Source of the DNA: Actinomycetota bacterium
GTDB lineage: Bacteria > Actinomycetota > UBA4738 > CALAEC01
Assembly (NCBI GenBank): GCA_050692555.1
Contig: JBOGVS010000002.1
Span: 50,651 to 114,650 of the forward strand
Length of the DNA: 64,000 nt
Direction: 5' to 3'
In this document: positions 8,470 through 60,323 of the stretch, one piece after another
Numbering within the stretch: the stretch's first letter is position 1
Layout of the letters: each line of letters starts with the position of its first letter
The notes under the pieces: model-generated
Seen by the model: the letters and a program-made list of their open reading frames with translations, nothing else
Told to the model about the DNA's origin: nothing
Databases searched by the model: none
Position numbers and translations under genes: made by a program

Positions 8470-9963
8470 CTAGGTTTCTGGACGGAGCGTGGGGAACAGG
8501 ATGACCTCGCGGAGCGAAGGGGCGTCGGTGAGGACCATCAACAGGCGGTCCACCCCGAGTCCCAGTCCGCCGGCCGGGGGCATGCCGTGCTCCAGGGCGA
8601 CCAGGAACTCCTCGTCGTGCGGATGGGCCTCCTCGTCCCCGGCCGCCCGTTGGTCCCGCTGCATCTCGAACCTGCGGCGCTGCTCGTCGGGGTCGGTGAG
8701 CTCCGAGTAGGCCGGGGCGAGCTCCACCCCGCCCATCACCAGGTCGAAGTGCTCCGTGAGGTGAGGATCCTCCCGATGGGTCCTGGCCAGCGGCGAGACC
8801 TCGCGAGGGAAGTCCTTGACGATCGTGGGCTCGATCAGGGACTCCTCTACCAGCTTCTCGAACAGCTCGAGGACCAGCTTCCCGGCTCCCCAAGCCGGGT
8901 GGTAGCCGACCCCATGCTCGTCGCACAGAGCGTGGAGGTCGTCGATCGAGTCATCGATGGACACGGTCCGCCCGGTCGCCTCCGAGACCAGCTCGGTGAG
9001 GGTCGACCGGCGCCACGGCTTCTCCAGGTCCACCTCCGCTCCGCGCCAGGCAAAGGTGTGGCCTCCGTGCACCGCCACGCATGCCGCCTTCACCAGGCCC
9101 TCGACCAGGTCCATCATGTCCTCGTAGGAGCCGTAGGCCTGGTACGCCTCGAGCATCGTGAACTCCGGGAAGTGCGTGCGGTCGATCCCCTCGTTGCGGA
9201 AGTTCTTCCCCACCTCGTAGACCCGTTCGATACCCCCCACCAGAAGGCGCTTCAGATGGAGCTCCACGGCGATCCTCAGGTACACGTCGATGTCCAGCGC
9301 GTCGAAATGGGTGACGAACGGCCTGGCCAGCCCCCCACCGGGCACCGGCTGGAGGATCGGCGTCTCGACCTCCACGAACCCACGCTCGTCCAGGTGGGAG
9401 CGGAGCGCCGCGAGCATGCGGGCCCGGGCCGTCACGTGCTCTCTGACCTCGGGATTCGCCGCCAGGTCGAGGTACCGGCGCCGGTACCGGAGCTCCACGT
9501 CGCGGAGCCCGTGGAACTTCTCGGGCAACGGCCGCAGCGACTTGGTGAGCAACGTCAGACTGGAGGCCCGGACCGAGAGCTCCCCGCGTTTCGTCTTCAT
9601 CACCTCGCCCCCGGCGCCGACCCAGTCGCCAAGGTCCAGGTCCTCCAGGCCGGCGAAAGCGTCTGGGGCAAGGTCCTCCTCGGTGAGGAACAGCTGGATG
9701 GTGCCGGACCCGTCGCGGAGGACCCCGAACGCCAGCTTCCCATGGTGCCGGAGGGCCACCAGCCGTCCGGCCACCCGAACGGTCTGGCCCGAGGACTCGC
9801 CGGTGGCCAGTCCGTCGAACTTCTCGTGCAGCTCGGAAGCCATCGCGTCGCGGTCGAAGCGCAACGCGAATGGCTCCACGCCTCGTTCCCGGAGCTTGTC
9901 GAGCTTGTGCCGGCGAACCGCCAGGACATCCTCTGCGGGAGGCGGCTCCTGATCGTCCTTCAT
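8470..9963 (-). CDS. lysS: Lysine--tRNA ligase (class II)
   Basis: N-terminal OB anticodon-binding domain, then class II motifs (FRNEGIDRTHFPEFTMLEAY; GGLGLGVDRLLMVL). Confidence 0.95.
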   Translation of the reverse strand: MKDDQEPPPAEDVLAVRRHKLDKLRERGVEPFALRFDRDAMASELHEKFDGLATGESSGQTVRVAGRLVALRHHGKLAFGVLRDGSGTIQLFLTEEDLAPDAFAGLEDLDLGDWVGAGGEVMKTKRGELSVRASSLTLLTKSLRPLPEKFHGLRDVELRYRRRYLDLAANPEVREHVTARARMLAALRSHLDERGFVEVETPILQPVPGGGLARPFVTHFDALDIDVYLRIAVELHLKRLLVGGIERVYEVGKNFRNEGIDRTHFPEFTMLEAYQAYGSYEDMMDLVEGLVKAACVAVHGGHTFAWRGAEVDLEKPWRRSTLTELVSEATGRTVSIDDSIDDLHALCDEHGVGYHPAWGAGKLVLELFEKLVEESLIEPTIVKDFPREVSPLARTHREDPHLTEHFDLVMGGVELAPAYSELTDPDEQRRRFEMQRDQRAAGDEEAHPHDEEFLVALEHGMPPAGGLGLGVDRLLMVLTDAPSLREVILFPTLRPET

Positions 9964-10018
9964 GGTTGGGGGCCCCCGGCGATCGCAGCGAGCGAAGCGA
10001 GCGAGATCGTTGGGGTTT
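9964..10018 (-). repeat. About 55-nt conserved intergenic element, copy A. Sense sequence: AAAACCCCAACGATCTCGCTCGCTTCGCTCGCTGCGATCGCCGGGGGCCCCCAACC
   Basis: It fills the entire coaX-stop to lysS-ATG gap. A near-identical copy (about 90% identity) lies at 59544..59596 in sense orientation between the two trkA genes. It contains TCGCT tandem pentamers and a GGGGGCCCCC palindrome. Confidence 0.6.
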
Positions 10019-10786
10019 TCATTCGGCGTTCTTCTCGTAGACCAGGCGCAGCCCCTCCAGGGTGAGCCACGGCTCGTGGTGGTCGATGGAGCGACACTCA
10101 GCGATCACCATGGGCGCCAGGCCGCCGGTGGCGATCACGGTCGGCGAGCCGAGCTCCTTCGAGATCCGTTCCACCATGCCGTCGATCATCGAGGCGTAGC
10201 CGAATACCAACCCGGACTGCACGCTCTCAACGGTGTTCTTGCCGATCACCGAGCTGGGGGCGGCCAGCTCCACCAGCGGAAGGAGGGCCGTGTGATCGAA
10301 CAGGGCCCTGGCCGCCAGCTGGACCCCTGGGGCGATCGCTCCGCCCAGGTACTCGCCCTTCTCCGATACCACGTCGAAGGTGGTGGCCGTGCCGAAGTCC
10401 ACCACGATCGCCGGGCCGCCGTACCCGTCGAACGCCGCCAATGCGTTGACGATCCGGTCGGCGCCGACCTCCTTGGGGTTGTCGGTGGCCACGTGCACAC
10501 CGGTCTTCACTCCGGGTTCCACCACCACCGCCGGGAACCGAAAGTACCGGCTGACCATCTCTCGCATCGCCTGCGTGGACGAGGGGACGACGCTGGACAG
10601 CACCACTCCGGTCACGTTGCGGTCGAACGACAGGCCCTGTTGCTGGAGGAACCCTCCGAACAGGAGGGCCAGCTCGTCCGCGGTGCGCTCGGGCTCGGTG
10701 GCCATCCGCCACCGCCACGCCAGCTCGGCGTCGCGGAACACTCCCACCACCGTCTCGGTGTTCCCGATGTCGACCGCCAGGAGCAT
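10019..10786 (-). CDS. coaX: Type III pantothenate kinase
   Basis: MLLAVDIGNTETVVGVF (DIGNT motif) with the Bvg accessory factor/CoaX fold throughout. Confidence 0.9.
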   Translation of the reverse strand: MLLAVDIGNTETVVGVFRDAELAWRWRMATEPERTADELALLFGGFLQQQGLSFDRNVTGVVLSSVVPSSTQAMREMVSRYFRFPAVVVEPGVKTGVHVATDNPKEVGADRIVNALAAFDGYGGPAIVVDFGTATTFDVVSEKGEYLGGAIAPGVQLAARALFDHTALLPLVELAAPSSVIGKNTVESVQSGLVFGYASMIDGMVERISKELGSPTVIATGGLAPMVIAECRSIDHHEPWLTLEGLRLVYEKNAE

Positions 10787-11275
10787 CTACGCCTCCACCT
10801 CGATCGCGAAGTCGACGCCATTCTGACCTGTGGCCACCGGGGCGGGCGCCGGTTGGCTCCGGAGGGCCGCGGCGTGCTCTCCGATCTGAAGGGCGTAGTC
10901 GGCCAGGTCGGGTGGCAGGTTCGAACGCTCGGGACGGTCACCACGAGTGGCCAGCCTGGACATCTCGCTGAGGAACCGGAGGGCGGTTCCGCCCGCAGCT
11001 TCGATGGCCCGAACCGGACCGCCCACCTCCGCGATCCGCTCCCCGGGCCGGACCACGTCACCGTCCCGGCGGACCTCCCGCATCCGGACACCCACTCTGG
11101 ATAGGGTCTCCCGGGCCACGGCCAGGCCGGCCACCACGCCGTGTGACTGAGCCACCACCTGCCCGCGGCCGGTGGCCGCCTCGTCGGCACCGGCGTCCGG
11201 CCGCCAGTCTCGGAGATCCTCCTGGAGGGCCGGGACCACCGCCCGAAGGATCTGGACCCGGTCGAGCTCCCTCAC
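10787..11275 (-). CDS. Quinolinate phosphoribosyltransferase (NadC) N-terminal-domain-only ORF (truncated nadC remnant), 162 aa
   Basis: The GTG start overlaps the panC stop as GTGA, and the TAG stop abuts the coaX ATG. The sequence VRELDRVQILRAVVPALQEDL...HGVVAGLAVARE...DGDVVRPGERIAEVGGPVRAIEAAGGTALRFLSEMSRLAT aligns with residues about 10-120 of E. coli NadC. No TIM-barrel catalytic domain is present in any frame. Confidence 0.5.
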   Translation of the reverse strand: MRELDRVQILRAVVPALQEDLRDWRPDAGADEAATGRGQVVAQSHGVVAGLAVARETLSRVGVRMREVRRDGDVVRPGERIAEVGGPVRAIEAAGGTALRFLSEMSRLATRGDRPERSNLPPDLADYALQIGEHAAALRSQPAPAPVATGQNGVDFAIEVEA

Positions 11276-36124: not shown

Positions 36125-37342
36125 ATGCGAAAACCCTCCCGGCCCGCAGCTCTCGTTTCCTTTCTTCTCTGTGTCCTGTTCCTGGGTGGCCAGGCGGCCG
36201 CCCGGCCATCCGCCCAGAAGGCCCAGGCCCCCGTGGCCGGGAAGATCGCCATGAGCTCAGGCCGGACCGGAGATCCCGAAATCTTCCTGATGGAGCACGA
36301 CGGCTCGGGCCTCCACCGGCTCACGTATCAGGCAGGGATCGACTCTCAGCCCGCGTGGTCGCCCGACGGCTCCCGTCTGGCGTTCACCAGCACCCGGGAC
36401 GGGAACAGTGAGATCTACGTCGTCGGCGTGGATGGCTCCGGACTGGCAAACCTGACCAACCATCCCGGTGAGGACTTCGGTCCGGCGTGGTCTCCGGACG
36501 GCTCCCAGATCGCGTTCCGGTCGCTGCGGGACGGGAACGGCGAGATCTACGTGATGGGCGCGGGCGGCTCCAACCCCACCAACCTCACGAACGACCCCGC
36601 CGCCGACTTCGAGCCGGCCTGGTCGCCCGACGGCACCGAGATCGCCTTCACCTCGTTCCGGGACGGCAACGGGGAGATCTACGTGATGGACTCGGACGGG
36701 TCCTTTCCCGATAACCTCACCCAGGACCCCGCCCAGGACGCCGAGCCCTTCTGGTCTCCGGACGGTGACAGGATCGCGTTCGAGTCCTCGCGGAACTTCA
36801 ACCTGGACATCTATTCAATGGACTGGGACGGCTCTGGTCAGACCAGGCTGACCACGGATCCGGCCGATGACTACGACCCGTCCTGGTCCCCGGACGGAGG
36901 CAAGATCGCCTTCGAGTCCTATCGTGACGCGAACAGCGAGATCTACGTGATGGGTCCCGACGGATCGGGCCAGACGAACATCACCCGGTCGCCTACGGGG
37001 GAGTTCGACCCCGCCTGGCAGCCGATGTCGCCCATGCCGACCGTCACCGGCGTCAAGGTGCGGGAGGGGAAGCCGGCCAAGTTCACGATCCGGCTCCCCG
37101 AACCGCCGGCCACCGCGACGACGCTCAAGTACCAGACCAGGAAGGGCTCCGCGAAGCCAGGGAAGGACTTCGTCTCGGCCAAGGGAACGCTGACCTTCGC
37201 CCCAGGGCAGACCACCGCCGTGGTCAAGGTCAAGACCAAGAAGGACAGCCGCCGGGAGAAGCGCGAGAGGTTCTTCCTGGAGGTTTCGGTGCTCGGAGCC
37301 CCCGGAATGACGGCCAGGGCCACCCTCAAGGACAGCGACTAG
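36125..37342 (+). CDS. Secreted TolB-like beta-propeller protein (six PD40/WD40-like repeats) with a C-terminal Calx-beta domain
   Basis: A repeat unit of the form PAWSPDGSRLAFTSTRDGNSEIYVVGVDGSG occurs 6-7 times. The C-terminal PAKFTIRLPEPPATATTLKYQTRKGSAKPGKDFVSAKGTLTFAPGQTTAVVKV is Calx-beta-like. Confidence 0.75.
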   Translation: MRKPSRPAALVSFLLCVLFLGGQAAARPSAQKAQAPVAGKIAMSSGRTGDPEIFLMEHDGSGLHRLTYQAGIDSQPAWSPDGSRLAFTSTRDGNSEIYVVGVDGSGLANLTNHPGEDFGPAWSPDGSQIAFRSLRDGNGEIYVMGAGGSNPTNLTNDPAADFEPAWSPDGTEIAFTSFRDGNGEIYVMDSDGSFPDNLTQDPAQDAEPFWSPDGDRIAFESSRNFNLDIYSMDWDGSGQTRLTTDPADDYDPSWSPDGGKIAFESYRDANSEIYVMGPDGSGQTNITRSPTGEFDPAWQPMSPMPTVTGVKVREGKPAKFTIRLPEPPATATTLKYQTRKGSAKPGKDFVSAKGTLTFAPGQTTAVVKVKTKKDSRREKRERFFLEVSVLGAPGMTARATLKDSD

Positions 37343-37456
37343 CAGCTGAGGTTTCGGGCCGATCTGAACAGCCAGGTGCGAAGCTCCGGGATTGTGTGGT
37401 CGGGATCATGACCATGTGGACGGAATCCCGACCAGTCTCGCGGAGAGCCCAGTTGA

Positions 37457-37529
37457 GCCGGAGGCGGGAATCGAACCCGCGACCCCGCGATTACGAATCG
37501 CGTGCTCTGCCAGGCTGAGCTACTCCGGC
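37457..37529 (-). tRNA. tRNA-Thr (anticodon CGU)
   Basis: The minus-strand sequence GCCGGAGTAGCTCAGCCTGGCAGAGCACGCGATTCGTAATCGCGGGGTCGCGGGTTCGATTCCCGCCTCCGGCT folds as a cloverleaf with a 7-bp acceptor stem, a D-arm, the anticodon loop TTCGTAA and a T-arm GTTCGATTC. CCA is not encoded. Confidence 0.85.
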
Positions 37530-51141: not shown

Positions 51142-53445
51142 CTACCTCTTCAGCTGGAACGGCACGCTCGACAGGACCACCCGCGGCTCGAACAGCAGCA
51201 TCCGCTTGATGAACAGCGCCCGGTTGTTGTGCAGCAGTCGGTGCCACCACCGGGTGACCAGGAACTCCGGGACGATCACTGCGGCAATCGTCCCCGGGTC
51301 GGCCGTCTCCTTCCGGACCTCCTCCAGCAGGGGGACGGTGAGGTCCCGGAACGGTGTCTCCACCACATCGAGCTGCATCCGGATGCCTCGCTCTGCCCAC
51401 TGCCGGAGGATCTCCGGTGCCTCCTCCGGCTCGGTGGCCAGGAAGACCGCCCGGGTCTTATGCGCATTGAGGCTGCGGGCGTAGTTGACCGCCCGAACCG
51501 TGGCATCGTGAGCTGCGGCCACAAAGACCAGGGCCACCACCCGCTCGGGGACCAGTGGACGCCCGACGGCATCCTCCGGCTGGTCCCTGCGGGCCAGCAC
51601 GGGAACGTCGGTGACGACCACTCCCGGCTCCTTCAGCAGGCGGAGCTTAAGGCGGAACGTTACCGGACGCGTGATGGCCCGTACCAGGGACCGCGTGGTG
51701 AACAGCTCCGGGATGACCACGGTCACGAAGTCCTTCCCGCCCCGAGGGATACGGCGCACGTGGTCGATCACCCCGTCGACCGGATCGGGGCTCCCCACGG
51801 ACATCAGGCGAGGGGCGCCCGGCGCCATCCTGTTCCACAGACCTTCGGCTTCGGTCGGGAGACGCTTCCCAACGTAGAGCGCATCGATGGAGGCGGGACG
51901 GAACGACCGCACGTATCCCACGGCCTCGGCCGCGGCGGCATCGATGTCCGTCATCACCAGCACCACGCGGGTCTCGCCGACATCCCCGAACGCGGTCCGG
52001 CCCCGTCCGAGCTCCTTCACCACCTCCTCGTAGTGCCGGTGGACCAACGAGAAGAGACCGACCAGGATGGGCATCGCCGCGATAACGATCCACGCTCCGC
52101 CGGCGAACTTCGTGACGGCCACGATCACCAAGACCACGCCCGTGGCGACGGCACCGATCGAGTTGATGACGGCGGCACGCTTCCAGCCCGACTCCCGAAG
52201 ACGGAGCCAGCGCCGCACCATACCCGTCTGGGACAGGGTGAATGCGGTGAACACCCCCACCACGTACAGCTGGATGAGCCGCGTCAGGTCGGCGTCGAAT
52301 GCCCACACCAGAAGGCCGGCCAGCGCGGCCAGCACGAAGATCCCGTTGGAGAACACCAGCCGGTCTCCCCGATTCTTGAATTGACTGGGCATGAAGCGGT
52401 CGCGGGCGAGGATCGCCGAGAGGCGAGGGAAGTCCTGGTACGCCGTGTTCGCCGCCAGGATCAGGATGAGCGCGGTGAAGACCTGGAGCACGTAGAACAT
52501 CGTGCCGCCTGAGAACACGGTCTCCCCGATCTGAGCAAGGACCGACTTCGCCCCCTCGAGGTGCTGACTAACCCGCACGTCCAGTGACCGCGCCAGGAAC
52601 GTGATCCCCAGGAACATGCTGATCGACATGGTCCCCATGACCGCAAGCGTCGTTGCCGCGTTGCGCGACTGGGGGCGGCGGAACGCCTGAACCCCATCGG
52701 CGATGGCCTCCACGCCGGTGAGCGCCGTCGAGCCGGAGGCGAACGCCTTCAGGACGACGAACAACGATAGGGCCTGCCCGGCTTCGAGAGGCAGAGTCGC
52801 GGAGGTCGCCTGACGGCACCCGCCGATGCACTGCACCAGGCCGGTGACCAAGGTGACGGCCACACAGGCCACGAACCCATACGTGGGGATGGCGAAGAGC
52901 GTCCCGGCTTCCTTCACGCCTCGCAGGTTGGCCAGCGAGATGATCGCGATAAGGATCAGGGCGATCGGTACGCGCGCGCCTGCCAACCCCGGCACGGCGG
53001 AGACGATGGCGATCGTTCCCGCCGTCACGCTGACGGCGACGGTAAGGACGTAGTCCTGCAGGATCGCCGCCGCAGCGATCAGACCAGGGACTGTCCCCAG
53101 GTTCTCCCGGGCCACGATGTAGGAACCGCCACCCGCCGGATAGGCCCGCACGGTCTGCCGATAGGAGGTGATGACCACGGCGAGCACCGCGGCGATCACC
53201 GCTGCGATCGGCAGCATCAGGCTGAAGGCGGCCGCTCCCGCCGCCGCCAGCACCAGCATCATCTCCTCGGTGGCGTATGCCACTGAGGAGAGGGGGTCCG
53301 ACGAGAAGACCGGGAGGGCCAGGGTCTTGGGCAGGAGGTGGTGCTCGTGCTTCGCGGTGGAGATGGCCCGGCCCAGTACCACGCGCTTCAAAAGGCCCCG
53401 CCCCCCCGGTTCCGTCCCCCGGGAGGGACGAACGGTCGTCCCCAT
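51142..53445 (-). CDS. APC-superfamily permease fused to two C-terminal USP-like (adenine-nucleotide alpha-hydrolase-like) domains; paralog 1
   Basis: N-terminal 12-TM permease (LLPKTLALPVFSSDPLSSVAYATEE...), then two tandem alpha/beta domains of about 130 aa (RVVLVMTDIDAAAAEAVGYVRS...; RVVALVFVAAAHDATVRAVNYARSL...AAVIVPEFL) with USP-like topology but no ATP-binding Gly motif. The start was chosen at MGTTV by alignment to the paralog. Confidence 0.8.
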   Translation of the reverse strand: MGTTVRPSRGTEPGGRGLLKRVVLGRAISTAKHEHHLLPKTLALPVFSSDPLSSVAYATEEMMLVLAAAGAAAFSLMLPIAAVIAAVLAVVITSYRQTVRAYPAGGGSYIVARENLGTVPGLIAAAAILQDYVLTVAVSVTAGTIAIVSAVPGLAGARVPIALILIAIISLANLRGVKEAGTLFAIPTYGFVACVAVTLVTGLVQCIGGCRQATSATLPLEAGQALSLFVVLKAFASGSTALTGVEAIADGVQAFRRPQSRNAATTLAVMGTMSISMFLGITFLARSLDVRVSQHLEGAKSVLAQIGETVFSGGTMFYVLQVFTALILILAANTAYQDFPRLSAILARDRFMPSQFKNRGDRLVFSNGIFVLAALAGLLVWAFDADLTRLIQLYVVGVFTAFTLSQTGMVRRWLRLRESGWKRAAVINSIGAVATGVVLVIVAVTKFAGGAWIVIAAMPILVGLFSLVHRHYEEVVKELGRGRTAFGDVGETRVVLVMTDIDAAAAEAVGYVRSFRPASIDALYVGKRLPTEAEGLWNRMAPGAPRLMSVGSPDPVDGVIDHVRRIPRGGKDFVTVVIPELFTTRSLVRAITRPVTFRLKLRLLKEPGVVVTDVPVLARRDQPEDAVGRPLVPERVVALVFVAAAHDATVRAVNYARSLNAHKTRAVFLATEPEEAPEILRQWAERGIRMQLDVVETPFRDLTVPLLEEVRKETADPGTIAAVIVPEFLVTRWWHRLLHNNRALFIKRMLLFEPRVVLSSVPFQLKR

Positions 53446-56543: not shown

Positions 56544-58815
56544 TCGACCTCCTGATCTTGTAGGGCACGCTCGAGAGCACCACCCGCGATTCGAACAACA
56601 GCATGCGCTTGATGAACAGAGCCCGGTTGTTGTGGAGCAGCCGATGCCACCACCGGGTCACGAGGAACTCGGGCAGGATCACCGCGGCCAGGGTGGACGG
56701 GTCGGTCGTGACTCGCCGGACCTCTTCGAGAAGCGGCGGCCCCAGGTCGCGGAACGGAGCCTCGACCACGTCGAGGCGGATGCCGATGCCTCGCTCTGCC
56801 CACCGCTGCAGGATCTCGGGGGCTTCCTCCGGTTCGGTGGCCAGGAAGACGGCTCTGGTCTCGTGGGCGTTCAGGCTCCGGGCGTAGTTGACGGCCCGCA
56901 CGGTGGCATCGTTGACGGAGGAGACGAACACCAGAGCTTCCACTCGCGGAGGGATCAGCGCCCGGCCGTCCACCCCCACGAGCTCCCCTTCTTGTGCCAG
57001 CACCGGCACGTCGGTCACGACCACCTGTGGCTCGGCCAGGAGCCTAACCTTCAGGCGGAACGTGACCGGCTTTACCAGAGCCCGCACAAGCGACCTCGTC
57101 GGGAAGAACTCAGGGATCACAACGGTCACGAAGTCCCCCGGGTCACGAGGGACCCGGCGAACATGCTCGATGACCGCCTCCACTCGCGATCTCCCCTCCG
57201 CCGGCTCCAGCGGCGGAAGCCCGCGACTCATCTCGGCCCAGAGCGCCTGGGCGTCCCCGATCGGCCGGTCCCCGGCGTAGACGGGGTGGACCTCGGCCGG
57301 CCGGAGCGAGCGGACGTATCCGAGGGCCTCGGCGGTGGCGGGATCGAAGTCGGTCAGCACCAGCACGACCCGGTTGAGCCCCGGATCACGGTAGTTGACG
57401 TCGTGGCGATCCAGCGCAGCGGAGACCGCCGTGTAATGCCGATTCACCTGGAGCAGGGCGGTGATCATGATCGGCAGGGCCGCGACGACCATCCAGGCTC
57501 CTTCGGCAAACCGGGTCACCACCACCACGGCGAGGACCACTCCGGTCGTGGTCGCCCCGATCCCGTTTATCATCGCGTTCCGTCGCCAGCCCGCTTCCTT
57601 GGTGCTGGCCCACCTCCGCACCATCCCGGATTGAGAAAGGGTGAACGCGGTGAACACGCCGACCAGGTAGAGCGGGATCAGGCGCGTGAGCCTTCCATCA
57701 AATGCCCACACCAGCGCTCCGGCCAGGACCGACAGCACCAGGATCCCGTTCGAGAACACCAGCCGGTCTCCGCGGTTCTTGAACTGCCCGGGCATGAAGC
57801 GATCTCGCGCCAGGATCGCCGACAGCCGGGGGAAGTCCTGGTACGCGGTGTTGGCGGCCACGATCAGGATCATGGCCGTGAACGCCTGCAGCCCGATAAA
57901 GAGCGCACCGCGACCGAAGATCGTTGCCCCGATCTGAGACAAAACCGACCGCGAGGCCACGATCTCCTCCGTGACCCGGACGTCCAGCGTCCTGGCCAGG
58001 AACGTGATCCCCAGGAACATGGAGATCGACATCACGGCCATCACCGAGAGCGTCGCCGCGGCATTCTTGCCTTGCGGCCTCCGGAAGGCCTGGACGCCGT
58101 CGGCGATGGCCTCAACCCCCGTCAGGGCGGATGATCCCTGAGTGAAGGCCTGCAACACGAGGAAGATCGTGATCGACTGCGTGGCCTCCAGAGGCAGCCC
58201 GGCGGTGGCTGCTTCCGGGCATCCGCCGACGCATCTGACGAGCCCGGTTATCACGGTCAAGCCCACCACCGCGACGAAGCCGTAGGTGGGGACGGCGAAC
58301 AACATGCCCGACTCCCGCACCCCCCGGAGGTTGACCAGCGCAATGAGGGCGATGAACCCCAACGCCAGGTTCACGCGATGCGGCGCGAGCTCGGGGACGG
58401 CTGACGTGATCGCGATTGCTCCGGCGGTCACACTGACCGCGGCGGTGACGACGTAGCCGATCAGGATGGCGGAGGCGGCCAGGAGGCCCGGGAAGGTGCC
58501 GAGGTTCTCGCGGGCCACGATGTATGAGCCACCTCCGCGAGGATATGCCCGGACGGTCTGGCGATAGGAAGTCACGACGATCAGGAGGACGGCCGCGATG
58601 GCCAGCCCGATGGGCACCATGAGAGCCAGGGCTGCCGCGCCGGCCAGCACCAGGATCAACATCATCTCCTCGGTGGCGTAGGCCACGGAAGACAGGGGAT
58701 CTGAGGAGAACACCGGCAGGGCTAACGTCTTGGGGAGGAGGTGATGTTCTGTCTTGGCGGTGGAGATCGCCCGGCCCAGAATGACCCGCTTCAGGGTGTC
58801 GCCGACGGTGGCCAC
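56530..58815 (-). CDS. APC-superfamily permease fused to two C-terminal USP-like domains; paralog 2 (Rv2690c-like position next to trkA)
   Basis: Full-length paralog of 51142..53445; the 3' ends share about 85% nucleotide identity. Divergently adjacent to the trkA pair, as M. tuberculosis Rv2690c is to ceoB/ceoC. Confidence 0.8.
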   Translation of the reverse strand: MATVGDTLKRVILGRAISTAKTEHHLLPKTLALPVFSSDPLSSVAYATEEMMLILVLAGAAALALMVPIGLAIAAVLLIVVTSYRQTVRAYPRGGGSYIVARENLGTFPGLLAASAILIGYVVTAAVSVTAGAIAITSAVPELAPHRVNLALGFIALIALVNLRGVRESGMLFAVPTYGFVAVVGLTVITGLVRCVGGCPEAATAGLPLEATQSITIFLVLQAFTQGSSALTGVEAIADGVQAFRRPQGKNAAATLSVMAVMSISMFLGITFLARTLDVRVTEEIVASRSVLSQIGATIFGRGALFIGLQAFTAMILIVAANTAYQDFPRLSAILARDRFMPGQFKNRGDRLVFSNGILVLSVLAGALVWAFDGRLTRLIPLYLVGVFTAFTLSQSGMVRRWASTKEAGWRRNAMINGIGATTTGVVLAVVVVTRFAEGAWMVVAALPIMITALLQVNRHYTAVSAALDRHDVNYRDPGLNRVVLVLTDFDPATAEALGYVRSLRPAEVHPVYAGDRPIGDAQALWAEMSRGLPPLEPAEGRSRVEAVIEHVRRVPRDPGDFVTVVIPEFFPTRSLVRALVKPVTFRLKVRLLAEPQVVVTDVPVLAQEGELVGVDGRALIPPRVEALVFVSSVNDATVRAVNYARSLNAHETRAVFLATEPEEAPEILQRWAERGIGIRLDVVEAPFRDLGPPLLEEVRRVTTDPSTLAAVILPEFLVTRWWHRLLHNNRALFIKRMLLFESRVVLSSVPYKIRRSNGSR

Positions 58816-58867: not shown

Positions 58868-59533
58868 GTGAGATCGATGCATCTGGTGATCATGGGTTGC
58901 GGGCGGGTGGGGGCCGAACTGACCGTGCAGCTTTCCAAGGCCGGACACACCGTCTGCATCGTCGACAAGCGGAAGGAGGCCTTCGAGCGTCTCCCGCCGG
59001 GGTTCAACGCCAAGACCATCGTGGGCATCGGGTTCGACCGCGAGGTCCTGGAGGAGGCCGGGATCAAGGAGGCCGACGCGTTCATCGCCGTGTCCAACGG
59101 GGACAACTCCAACATCGTCTCGGCCCGGGTGGCCCGGGAGCACTACCGGGTCCCCAAGGTCATCGCCCGGATCTACGACCCCCGGCGAGCGGAGATCTAC
59201 GAGCGGCTGGACATCCCCACGGTGGCCACGGTCCGGTGGGCGGCCAAGCAGGTCCAGTACCTCCTGTTCCACGGCAAGGAGACCATGCGGGACACCCTGG
59301 CTGGCGGCTCCCTCCTCCACCTGGCGGTTGGGATCCCCGATCACCTGGTTGGCAAGCAGGCCGACAGCGTGCACTCAGAGGGGGAGGTGGAGGTCGTCGG
59401 GGTCGAGCGGGGCGGCGAGGGGTTCATCCCCACCCCCGACTCCACCTTCAAGGAAGGCGACGTGGCCCACTTCATCGTGCACAAAGACCACGTGGACAAG
59501 TTCGACATGCTGCTCGAACCGGTGGCCGAATGA
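58868..59533 (+). CDS. trkA: TrkA-family K+ transport regulatory protein (RCK N + C domains)
   Basis: HLVIMGCGRVGAEL Rossmann fold with a TrkA_C domain; CeoB-like. Confidence 0.85.
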   Translation: MRSMHLVIMGCGRVGAELTVQLSKAGHTVCIVDKRKEAFERLPPGFNAKTIVGIGFDREVLEEAGIKEADAFIAVSNGDNSNIVSARVAREHYRVPKVIARIYDPRRAEIYERLDIPTVATVRWAAKQVQYLLFHGKETMRDTLAGGSLLHLAVGIPDHLVGKQADSVHSEGEVEVVGVERGGEGFIPTPDSTFKEGDVAHFIVHKDHVDKFDMLLEPVAE

Positions 59534-59543
59534 AGATCGTCGC

Positions 59544-59596
59544 AAAACCCCACGTCTCTCGCTCGCTTCGCTCGCTGCGAGCCGCGGGGGCCCCAC
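59544..59596 (+). repeat. About 55-nt conserved intergenic element, copy B. Sequence: AAAACCCCACGTCTCTCGCTCGCTTCGCTCGCTGCGAGCCGCGGGGGCCCCACTCC
   Basis: About 90% identical to the reverse complement of 9964..10018. Followed by a GGTACAgggTGTACC inverted repeat. It lies between the trkA1 stop and the trkA2 start. Confidence 0.6.
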
Positions 59597-59639
59597 TCCC
59601 TGGTACAGGGTGTACCGACAGATCCCAGGGGGTGGGTCC

Positions 59640-60323
59640 TTGAGGATCGTGGTGGCCGGCGCGGGCAACATCGGCCGTTACATGGCCCACGACCTGGTGG
59701 AGCGAGGCCACGAGGTGTCGCTGATCGAGCAGGACCCCGCCATGGCCGAGCGGGCTAGCCACGACGTCGCCGAGGACGTCACTATGGTTTTGGGCGATGC
59801 CTGCGAGCCATGGGTCCTGGACAAGGCCGACGTCCGCTCCTCGGACGTGATGGTTGCCGCGACGGGCGACGACGAGGACAACCTGGTGATCTCCTTGCTC
59901 TCGAAACAGGAGTACGGCGTTCCCCGAGTGGTGGCCCGGGTCAACCACCCCAAGAACGAGTGGCTGTTCAACGAGACCTGGGGCGTCGACGTGGCCATGA
60001 GCCCACCGCACGTCCTCACCGCTCTGGTCGAGGAAGCCGTGACGGTGGGCGACCTGGTGCGGCTGTTCAAGCTGGAGCGAGGCCAGGTCACCCTGGTGGA
60101 GCTGACCATCGACGAGAACGCCCCGATGCAGGGCCGGCCCCTCTACGAGCTCCGGCTTCCTCCCGACTCCGCCATCGTGGCCATCCTCCGGGGCGGCCAC
60201 GTGGTCATCCCCCAACCCGAGACCCAGATCGTGGGCGGGGACGAGGTCATGGCCATCGCCACGCCGGAAGCCGAGGATAAGCTTCGCACCACGTTGCTCG
60301 GCCCGCCCTCGTCGAGCGGGTAG
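59640..60323 (+). CDS. trkA: TrkA-family K+ transport regulatory protein, second copy (CeoC-like)
   Basis: RIVVAGAGNIGRYMAHDLVERGHEV Rossmann fold with a TrkA_C domain. The start is probably TTG/GTG (59640 or 59648). Confidence 0.8.
   Translation: MRIVVAGAGNIGRYMAHDLVERGHEVSLIEQDPAMAERASHDVAEDVTMVLGDACEPWVLDKADVRSSDVMVAATGDDEDNLVISLLSKQEYGVPRVVARVNHPKNEWLFNETWGVDVAMSPPHVLTALVEEAVTVGDLVRLFKLERGQVTLVELTIDENAPMQGRPLYELRLPPDSAIVAILRGGHVVIPQPETQIVGGDEVMAIATPEAEDKLRTTLLGPPSSSG

Follow-up and report, generated by a model that had tools for sequence, protein, structure and literature searches.

Two copies of a probable MIRU-like mobile element at stop/start overlaps of operon genes in an uncultured Actinomycetota genome

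Results

A short element occurs twice between co-directional genes

We analyzed a 64-kb stretch of high-GC DNA from an Actinomycetota bacterium (contig JBOGVS010000002.1, positions 50,651 to 114,650; hereafter the window), in which a short element occurs twice: once between coaX and lysS (copy W1) and once between two trkA genes (copy W2). Around 10 kb, the minus strand carries the classical folP-folB-folK-panC-coaX-lysS gene order. W1 occupies the entire 55-nt gap from the coaX stop codon to the lysS ATG (9963-9961), and this ATG was taken as the lysS start because the N-terminus of the product aligns with homologues. W2 is placed between the trkA1 stop codon (59531-59533) and the TTG that starts trkA2. 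Gene identities were supported by Pfam matches (Pan_kinase and tRNA-synt_2 for coaX and lysS; TrkA_N/TrkA_C for both trkA genes), and the trkA2 product was 94% identical to TrkA2 of locus L044 (L-numbers denote fetched related loci), the start of which reads MRIVVAGAGNIGRH. Both window copies are single and non-tandem.

Table 1. Coordinates of the two copies, their parts and the adjoining genes in the window
Feature	Position	Strand	Remarks
lysS (class II lysyl-tRNA synthetase)	8470..9963	-	downstream of W1
W1 right target copy, ATGAA	9959..9963	-	holds mini-ORF stop and lysS start
Mini-ORF 1, MKTPTISLASLAAIAGGPQP	9960..10022	-	ATG 10022-10020 overlaps coaX TGA 10021-10019; TGA 9962-9960 overlaps lysS ATG
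W1 (short form), AAAACCCCAACGATC-TCGCTCGCTTCGCTCGCTGCGA-TCGCCGGGGGCCCCCAACC	9964..10018	-	C-rich strand is mRNA strand
W1 hairpin, G-rich strand	9974..10015	+ (antisense to operon)	11-bp stem 9974-9984/10005-10015 around invariant core
W1 left target copy, ATGAA	10018..10022	-	holds coaX stop and mini-ORF start
coaX (type III pantothenate kinase)	10019..10786	-	upstream of W1
trkA1 (TrkA_N/TrkA_C)	58868..59533	+	upstream of W2
W2 left target copy, 13 nt, ATGAAGATCGTCG	59530..59542	+	ancestral trkA2 start, MKIV...
Mini-ORF 2, MKIVAKPHVSRSLRSLRAAGAPLPGTGCTDRSQGVGP	59530..59643	+	37 codons; ATG overlaps trkA1 stop (ATGA); TGA 59641-59643 overlaps TTG 59640-59642
W2 (short form), AAAACCCCACGTCTC-core-GCCGCGGGGGCCCC	59544..59594	+	C-rich strand is mRNA strand; core 59559-59580
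Second hairpin, W2 only, CCCCACTCCCTGG...CCAGGGGGTGGG	59591..59636	+	predicted fold, 12-bp stem
W2 right target copy, TTGAGGATCGTGG	59640..59652	+	present trkA2 start
trkA2 (TrkA_N/TrkA_C)	59640..60323	+	downstream of W2; TTG start

A first-pass annotation of this DNA had described an element of about 90% identity at the two sites, in sense orientation at both. A repeat search of the window returned the pair 9969-10019 and 59544-59594 as its longest inverted repeat (51 nt), which bears out the likeness and lowers the identity to 86%; the C-rich strand is sense to the flanking genes of both copies. The 24-mer TCTCGCTCGCTTCGCTCGCTGCGA is common to W1 and W2 without change, has no third site in the window at up to three mismatches, and found no match in 100 dinucleotide shuffles. 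Scored with a covariance model of 21 family members, W1 and W2 reached 76.5 and 75.3 bits, with the next-best match in the window at 16 bits. The tandem pentamers and palindrome of the earlier description are also present, as a direct repeat of TCGCTCGCT (two copies) and a GGGGGCCCC(C) palindrome.

Related genomes hold filled and empty sites

Orthologous junctions were fetched via LysS and TrkA1 homologues (Table 2). At coaX/lysS, the empty sites read ...gaaggATGAgcg, ...gagtgATGAgtg and ...gaacgATGAccg, with ...gccgaaggATGAgcgac as a further example, and the window and L037 carry two ATGA copies with 55 nt between them. At trkA1/trkA2, the empty-site sequence is gccgaATGA(A/G)GATCGTGGTCGCC, also given as gccgaATGA(A/G)GATCGTGG. 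Both window sequences are insertions into an ATGA stop/start overlap, with NTGA duplicated on both sides.

Table 2. State of orthologous junctions in related genomes (protein identities are to the window)
Junction	Locus	Identity	State
coaX/lysS	L037	92% LysS	filled
coaX/lysS	L038	88% LysS	empty, ATGA overlap, no spacer
coaX/lysS	L039-41	77% LysS	empty, ATGA overlap, no spacer
coaX/lysS	L042-43	75% LysS	empty, ATGA overlap, no spacer
trkA1/trkA2	L044	95% TrkA1	empty, ATGA overlap
trkA1/trkA2	L045	94% TrkA1	empty, ATGA overlap
trkA1/trkA2	P0126 contig	87% TrkA1	empty, from gene coordinates only
trkA1/trkA2	L046	81% TrkA1 (80% by blastp)	7-nt spacer without element
trkA1/trkA2	L036	81% TrkA1	filled

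The duplicated target varied in length: 4-6 nt (ATGA(A) at W1), 13 nt at W2 and about 20 nt at L032. The last of these, TCGATGATCGTCTGGCTC around the element at L032:1500-1700, greatly exceeds the 4-5 nt found elsewhere. The copy at L036 is placed differently from W2, and its stem resembles that of W1 and not that of W2. Because genomes nearer to the window than L036 are empty at this junction, the window and L036 insertions are independent, and one trkA junction has been invaded more than once. Some TrkA1 homologues are longer (229-256 aa), and C-terminal read-through into the element was considered; the excess was due to N-terminal start calling only.

The filled and empty orthologous sites refute the idea that W1 and W2 resemble each other by chance or through the low complexity of GC-rich DNA, with no common origin, an idea that is almost certainly wrong. 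Its appeal is that the core is a simple TCGCTCGCT direct repeat and that the 22-mer also occurs in haloarchaea and Dyella. However, no match is expected by chance in the window, and 21 copies share the flanks, with compensatory changes in the stem.

Short open reading frames bridge the insertions

Each window copy lies within a short open reading frame (mini-ORF) that starts on the upstream stop and ends on the downstream start. Mini-ORF 1 has 20 codons, and mini-ORF 2 passes through the core in a different frame. Comparable ORFs were found at related loci (Table 3). The start-to-start distance was 2 mod 3 in all eight measurable copies (59, 59, 59, 59, 62, 107, 110 and 122 nt), and only with this remainder does the left ATG lead into the right TGA. 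Were lengths free, this outcome would have a chance of (1/3)^7, about 5e-4, for the seven NTGA-NTGA events, and of 1/81 for the four lengths other than 59.

Table 3. Bridging ORFs of short-form copies
Locus	Downstream gene	ORF	Left/right junction	Start-to-start (nt)	Remarks
W1	lysS	MKTPTISLASLAAIAGGPQP	ATGA/ATGA	59	
L037	lysS	MKSPTISLASLAAIAGGHKR	ATGA/ATGA	59	same event as W1, outside the count of eight; frame kept
W2	trkA2	37 codons	ATGA/TTGA	110	
L036	trkA2	MSSHPQRSRSLRSLRSPGAP	ATGA/GTGA	59	
L033	rdgB	MNTPRISLASLAAIRGGPKNA	ATGA/GTGA	62	
L035	era	VTLNPTNLARFARCDSRGPQ	GTGA/ATGA	59	
L034	membrane protein	single 41-codon ORF across both tandem units	ATGA/ATGA	122	
L032	not identified	36 codons	ATGA/ATGA	107	
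L018	not identified	about 19 codons	GTGA/TAATG	59	

All three frames through the core are in use (ISLASLAAI, NLARFARCD and SRSLRSLRS), so that conservation extends to the open frame and its overlaps but not to the peptide. This bears on the idea that the mini-ORFs encode functional micro-proteins and that the repeat is a conserved small gene: an ORF of 20-41 codons with a start and a stop is found in nearly all copies, as that idea would have it, but the use of every frame leaves no conserved peptide and makes it highly improbable.

As the first-pass annotation had remarked, lysS has no canonical Shine-Dalgarno sequence; there is only a GGGGG 9 nt 5' of its ATG. The unusual translation-initiation context suggested for lysS at the same time pointed in the right direction, and from the sequence this context would be a bridging ORF with termination-reinitiation geometry.

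A covarying hairpin is stronger on the G-rich strand

The G-rich strand of W1 is predicted to form a hairpin with a GCGAAGC mini-hairpin at its centre and TTTT on its 3' side at 10016-10019. Folded as RNA, the G-rich strand of W1 reached -24.3 kcal/mol and the mRNA strand -15.3 kcal/mol; compared with shuffled sequences, the mRNA strand was no better (z = +0.27), whereas the other strand gave z = -2.0. Across the 21 copies, the 11-bp stem was 97% paired, with 98% of cells paired in the whole structure. Double-sided changes occurred at four pairs (11 cells), a level reached in none of 500 shuffles, and slid controls fell to 28-50% paired. The same asymmetry between strands runs through the family: the G-rich strand has 26 G.U pairs and the C-rich strand one, 225 of 231 cells pair on the former and 200 of 231 on the latter, and folding energies range from -21 to -29 and from -14 to -26 kcal/mol, respectively. 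The loop is invariant in the 21 copies, nearly all of which were retrieved by an exact core match (the exceptions being L037, the second L034 unit and both window copies), and includes GCGAAGC, the sequence of an unusually stable DNA mini-hairpin.

These data suggest that it is on the G-rich strand that the hairpin is important, the simplest reading being a role as single-stranded DNA while the element is mobilized, and that the orientation tolerated in operons is the one that places the weaker hairpin on the mRNA. W2 alone has a second predicted hairpin, which resembles the outer stem of a longer form of the element in related metagenome-assembled genomes (MAGs); its 3' arm, GGGGGTGGG, lies 3-4 nt 5' of the trkA2 TTG.

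The strand asymmetry speaks against an RNA element selected in the mRNA in the manner of repetitive extragenic palindromic (REP) sequences, with the hairpin stabilizing the message, forming an RNase III/E site or acting as an attenuator that sets the coaX:lysS and trkA1:trkA2 ratios, and with insertion and ORF incidental. On the mRNA strand the hairpin is systematically worse, the 26 G.U pairs becoming A.C mismatches, and in W1 its fold does not exceed that of shuffles; moreover, the flanking genes have no functional theme, and closely related genomes manage without the element. We consider this explanation unlikely, although the intercistronic position, the compensatory changes in the stem and the GGGG of the 3' arm, which is as far from the start codon as a Shine-Dalgarno sequence would be and is base-paired within the hairpin, agree with it, and REPs are known to stabilize upstream mRNA (review PMC3184786). 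Two suggestions of the first-pass annotation found no support. For a cis-regulatory RNA, the flanking genes are functionally unrelated and Rfam 15 gave no family at the gathering threshold or at E<=1 for the window copies (sub-threshold noise only), nor any in 10 related loci; for an internal promoter, a scan of both copies found no promoter-like site.

A function of the G-rich strand itself, with the hairpin and GGGGTTTT serving as an intrinsic terminator or antisense-RNA 3' end that blocks antisense transcription into the operons, would account for the wobble pairs on that strand and for the TTTT that directly follows the 11-bp GC-rich stem (plus strand at W1, minus strand at W2). Only the window copies and L034 have this T-run, however; the other 15 or more members have TGCC, TGGA, ATGG, TATT and the like at this position. 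A consensus terminator scan called neither window site, no promoter-like site that could drive antisense transcription was found, and the AAA opposite the run is the second (Lys) codon of the mini-ORF in W1 and L034 and codon 6 in W2. We regard such a function as very unlikely.

Copies of the family share placement and orientation

A scan for the exact 22-nt core in one genome per species yielded 26 loci, 10 of which share the flanks of the window copies, ACCCCACGGATC-core-TCCGCGGGG[G/A]CCCC, and come from the Actinomycetota MAGs SMAG_U4591, SMAG_U4612 and SMAG_U4702; a separate metagenome scan added eight contigs with the element. These relatives are soil MAGs labelled 'Actinomycetota bacterium', each with 3-6 exact-core copies. 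The short form, a bare hairpin of about 50 nt (unit about 46-55 nt), was seen in the window and at L018 and L029-L037. In SMAG_U4591 and SMAG_U4612, the hairpin is part of a long form of about 160 nt, where it lies inside a larger multi-stem structure and is reversed relative to the neighboring genes.

We counted about 11 independent short-form insertions. Nine of the 11 occupy or adjoin a stop/start junction between co-directional genes, and all 11 have the C-rich strand as the sense strand (two-sided chance about 0.001). Relative to genes defined by G+C content at third codon positions (GC3), a short-form copy typically begins 0-8 nt past the upstream stop and ends 0-9 nt ahead of the downstream start. 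The junctions include secY?-adk, rph?-rdgB, ?-era and trkA-trkA, and the genes flanking family copies (lysS, trkA, adk, era, rdgB and meaB) are functionally unrelated.

No diverged copies were found in the window by the covariance model with filters off, and only exact-core copies were found in about 335 kb of related loci. Viral contigs and plasmid and phage collections gave no match to the element. Literature searches returned nothing on the core sequence and nothing relevant on other actinobacterial repeats that resemble mycobacterial interspersed repetitive units (MIRUs).

At L034:8290-8420, two tandem units 46 nt apart share CCCC and are accompanied by a partial third 5' arm, the sole tandem array seen in the family and one that resembles a variable-number tandem repeat (VNTR). 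Tandem units of about 57 nt with a core variant, gatcgctcgcttcgctcgctgctcgaccaccgggtggtt..., occur at L019:4400-5760 in an uncultured Actinomycetota MAG.

The long form and other repeats with the same core

Long-form copies were located at L002:440-670, L003:6095-6325, L012:7270-7500, L015:3975-4205, L021:3533-3763, L024, L026 and L005. Here the G-rich strand is sense, and the element begins right after the upstream stop, as TAG followed by GGGGTCCAGGGGG. Two hairpins lie within an outer stem, CCAGGGGGAA/TTCCCCCTGG, and a strongly covarying hairpin at the 3' end (GCTGCC/GGCAGC, CTCGCC/GGCGAG, CGATCC/GGATCG) is followed by GGACTGAGGA. RNAalifold placed 50 pairs, seven of them with compensatory changes, and there was no Rfam match. 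The long form precedes gap, sdhB, rplS, gltA and other genes. Since it stands ahead of start codons, a riboswitch or leader was considered; this was rejected on two grounds: the genes that follow it show no relation to one another (gap, sdhB, rplS, gltA, one for an aldehyde dehydrogenase and, with a weak Pfam match, a PIN-domain gene 3' of carD), and copies from the same genome are nearly identical. Three 20-22-mers from other long-form modules had no window match at up to three mismatches.

The identical 22-nt core was also met in other intergenic repeats (L004, L006, L025, L009, L013, L017, L020, L010 and L014) of Geodermatophilaceae, Micromonosporaceae, Jatrophihabitantaceae and other Actinomycetota MAGs. 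Orientation in these families was read by eye from start and stop codons, GC3 being uninformative (symmetric between strands). L006 and L025 carry a GCGAGCG-rich repeat of about 210 nt with the G-rich strand sense, which ends ...GAGGCGGGGCAATCATGA on the start of the next gene; by sequence, this repeat appears even more MIRU-like than the short-form element. In unrelated hosts, the 22-mer forms a hairpin loop at L011:257-295, L022:3766-3804, L001:6546-6567, L007:3565-3605 and L016:1170-1205 and 1369-1404. Examples include a Halobacteriales MAG, where the site is a perfect terminator-like palindrome, a Halobacterium MAG, with the site immediately 3' of a tRNA, and Dyella subtropica, with a site next to a tRNA; further cases are a low-GC archaeal MAG and an Acidimicrobiia MAG, the latter with two sites within tandem tRNA-like units. 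Its presence there may reflect convergence on a simple repeat or something shared.

Other features of the window

Between panC and coaX, a 162-aa gene (window 10787-11275; L027:8689-9177) matched QRPTase_N (PF02749), and the aspartate decarboxylase (PanD) family was not among its listed matches; PanD is usually found at that position of actinobacterial pan clusters. Four head-to-tail 132-nt units with 63-73% identity at 36395-36922 probably encode a repeated protein domain. A duplication of about 2.2 kb (51144-53281 and 56547-58684; 72-80% identity, offset constant at 5403 nt) is probably a pair of paralogous genes. Its copy 5' of trkA1 is a 761-aa ORF, the counterpart of which in relatives matches AA_permease_2. 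A tRNA gene at 37456-37529 (minus strand) was the sole Rfam match of the window at the gathering threshold.

Discussion

Taken together, our analysis indicates that W1 and W2 are probably copies of a small non-autonomous, MIRU-like mobile element of uncultured soil Actinomycetota that would be translation-neutral at NTGA overlaps. In the mechanism that we propose, the element lands on the 4-nt stop/start overlaps (ATGA, GTGA) of translationally coupled operon genes, and the NTGA is duplicated. The left NTGA copy keeps the stop of the upstream gene and would give the short ORF its start, and the right copy would supply the stop of that ORF and keeps the downstream start. Ribosomes ending coaX or trkA1 would re-initiate on the mini-ORF, read 20 or 37 codons and unwind the hairpin on the way, stop at the lysS ATG or trkA2 TTG, and initiate again there. 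Such a relay would maintain expression of a downstream gene that lacks its own Shine-Dalgarno sequence, and the peptide would not matter; the lack of that sequence at lysS would then be explained, because the relay would supply initiation. The hairpin appears to be optimized on the G-rich strand, where it would most likely be recognized as a single-stranded DNA hairpin during mobilization, and the orientation of insertion would leave a weaker, A.C-mismatched hairpin on the mRNA that ribosomes can read. Movement may proceed by microhomology-mediated copying between NTGA-flanked junctions, or by nick-and-fill.

Several points weigh against this interpretation. Translation of the mini-ORFs and the ribosome relay are deduced from geometry. 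The argument for the mini-ORFs is drawn from overlap geometry and the frame rule, not from openness: open frames of 20-40 codons are common in high-GC DNA, and openness itself is weak evidence. The mod-3 rule may in turn be partly built into a fixed unit length, because four of the eight distances are 59. The GGGGG 5' of lysS (-14 to -10) could act as a weak Shine-Dalgarno sequence, making coupling unnecessary. Not every copy conforms: L029 sits 21 nt 5' of a meaB-like gene in a 190-nt spacer, off any junction; L031 lies 39 nt past a stop, needs two successive mini-ORFs and ends 4 nt beyond the start; and L030 (adk) has its ORF start at an internal ATG and, with a spacer of 2 nt, reproduces the ancestral TAA-AC-ATG spacing. 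The invariance of the core is partly an ascertainment artefact, because most copies were found by exact core match. Finally, no mobilizing enzyme was identified, and a classical (cut-and-paste) transposase is disfavored because the duplications vary from 4 to 20 nt.

MIRUs are 40-100 bp long and occur in polycistronic operons (Supply et al. 1997, per PMC12548453 and PMC3184786). Their sites may be filled or empty, and they show direct repeats of a tetranucleotide, inverted repeats rich in GC, and ORFs that overlap the adjacent genes (PMC3184786). The present element is likewise a short, dispersed actinobacterial repeat (46-55 nt, two copies in the 64-kb window), lies between co-directional genes of predicted operons (nine of about 11 insertions at or beside a stop/start junction) in fixed orientation (all 11), contains GC-rich internal inverted repeats, and has filled and empty orthologous sites with tetranucleotide repeats, here ATGA, some being longer (13 and about 20 nt). 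Its ORF ends overlap the flanking stop and start with the -4 spacing of MIRUs in W1, W2, L037, L036, L033, L034, L035, L032 and L018, and only approximately in L030 and L031. Tandem arrays of variable copy number, frequent among MIRUs, may have a counterpart at L034, the one locus of the family with tandem units.

In other respects the two differ. MIRUs have been 'found only in mycobacteria' (PMC6286618), whereas the host here is an uncultured, non-mycobacterial Actinomycetota lineage; the present element is a single long hairpin with an invariant loop, and its target duplications vary from 4 to about 20 nt. Judging by MIRU motifs A (TGACGAGGAGCGGCGCAGATGGCA) and B (GGCGCCGGTGACGATGCAGAGCGTAGCGA) (PMC6286618), with their ATGA and GAGGAG, the G-rich strand is sense in MIRUs but antisense here. 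The G-rich strand of W1 aligned with a MIRU-type repeat of M. intracellulare, CGACGATGCAGAGCGAAGCGATG (PMC10117815), as CGGCGATCGCAGCGAGCGAAGCGA versus CGACGAT-GCA--GAGCGAAGCGA, and none of 500 shuffles scored as high, the sequences being short and of low complexity; the alignment is found only on this strand, which is antisense to the operon here. Local alignment to M. tuberculosis motifs B+A, also short and of low complexity, was not significant (p about 0.09 for the G-rich and 0.58 for the sense strand; dinucleotide shuffles). We conclude that the element works like a MIRU, and we class it with such elements as a new family rather than as a MIRU itself.

The 'small REP/MITE-like repeat' that the first-pass annotation had listed among its options (MITE, miniature inverted-repeat transposable element) was right in kind, since the element forms a hairpin, is dispersed by insertion, fills some orthologous sites while others are empty, and has direct repeats on its flanks. 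With REPs and bacterial interspersed mosaic elements (BIMEs), which are mobilized by REP-associated tyrosine transposases (RAYTs; IS200/IS605-like Y1 transposases), it has in common a short, GC-rich imperfect palindrome that is dispersed and extragenic, a hairpin that is better on one DNA strand, and a conserved tetranucleotide block (here GGGG) that adjoins the stem. REPs, however, usually follow the last gene of an operon or lie between convergent genes, and they neither contain a bridging ORF nor depend on stop/start overlaps for their position. In the gene lists of the fetched loci we noticed neither a RAYT nor any other transposase, no whole-genome RAYT search having been made. MITEs (Correia/NEMIS, RUP) and Rickettsia palindromic elements (RPEs) are likewise non-autonomous and hairpin-forming, with target-site duplications, and RPEs and some MITEs are tolerated in expressed sequence by staying in frame (PMC3184786). 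The element is nevertheless much shorter than typical MITEs and has no target duplication of fixed length; it also differs from RPEs, which insert within ORFs and join the protein, in that it remains a separate cistron. No insertion sequence (IS) terminal repeats are known to match it, and no genome-wide search for a matching IS was made.

A bolder view is that of a still-active family that targets NTGA overlaps by an undescribed mechanism that uses the single-stranded G-rich hairpin and leaves target duplications of varying length, the core possibly marking an ancient, Actinomycetota-wide superfamily. Active targeting is supported by the two independent insertions at one trkA junction and by the nine of 11 insertions at or beside stop/start junctions. 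The notion of a superfamily derives from the GCGAAGC-containing core common to mycobacterial MIRU-type, Geodermatophilaceae, Micromonosporaceae and Jatrophihabitantaceae repeats; its members could be 'translation-neutral' operon parasites recognized by one conserved protein. We put this view forward tentatively and think it doubtful as a whole.

MIRUs have served tuberculosis genotyping for 25 years, and how they move and why they occupy start-codon sites are still unexplained. Our MIRU-like element would be a second family, distinct in sequence, with the same strategy: it lands on an ATGA overlap, duplicates it and bridges the gap with a throw-away ORF. The filled and empty sites, the repeated use of one junction and the strand-asymmetric, covarying hairpin offer handles on target choice and on the strand that is recognized. 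For annotation, the relay would account for genes such as lysS that seem to have no ribosome-binding site, and it flags unannotated relay ORFs. That a second family shares this strategy suggests that selfish DNA can, in general, reside within operons in this manner and avoid polar effects.

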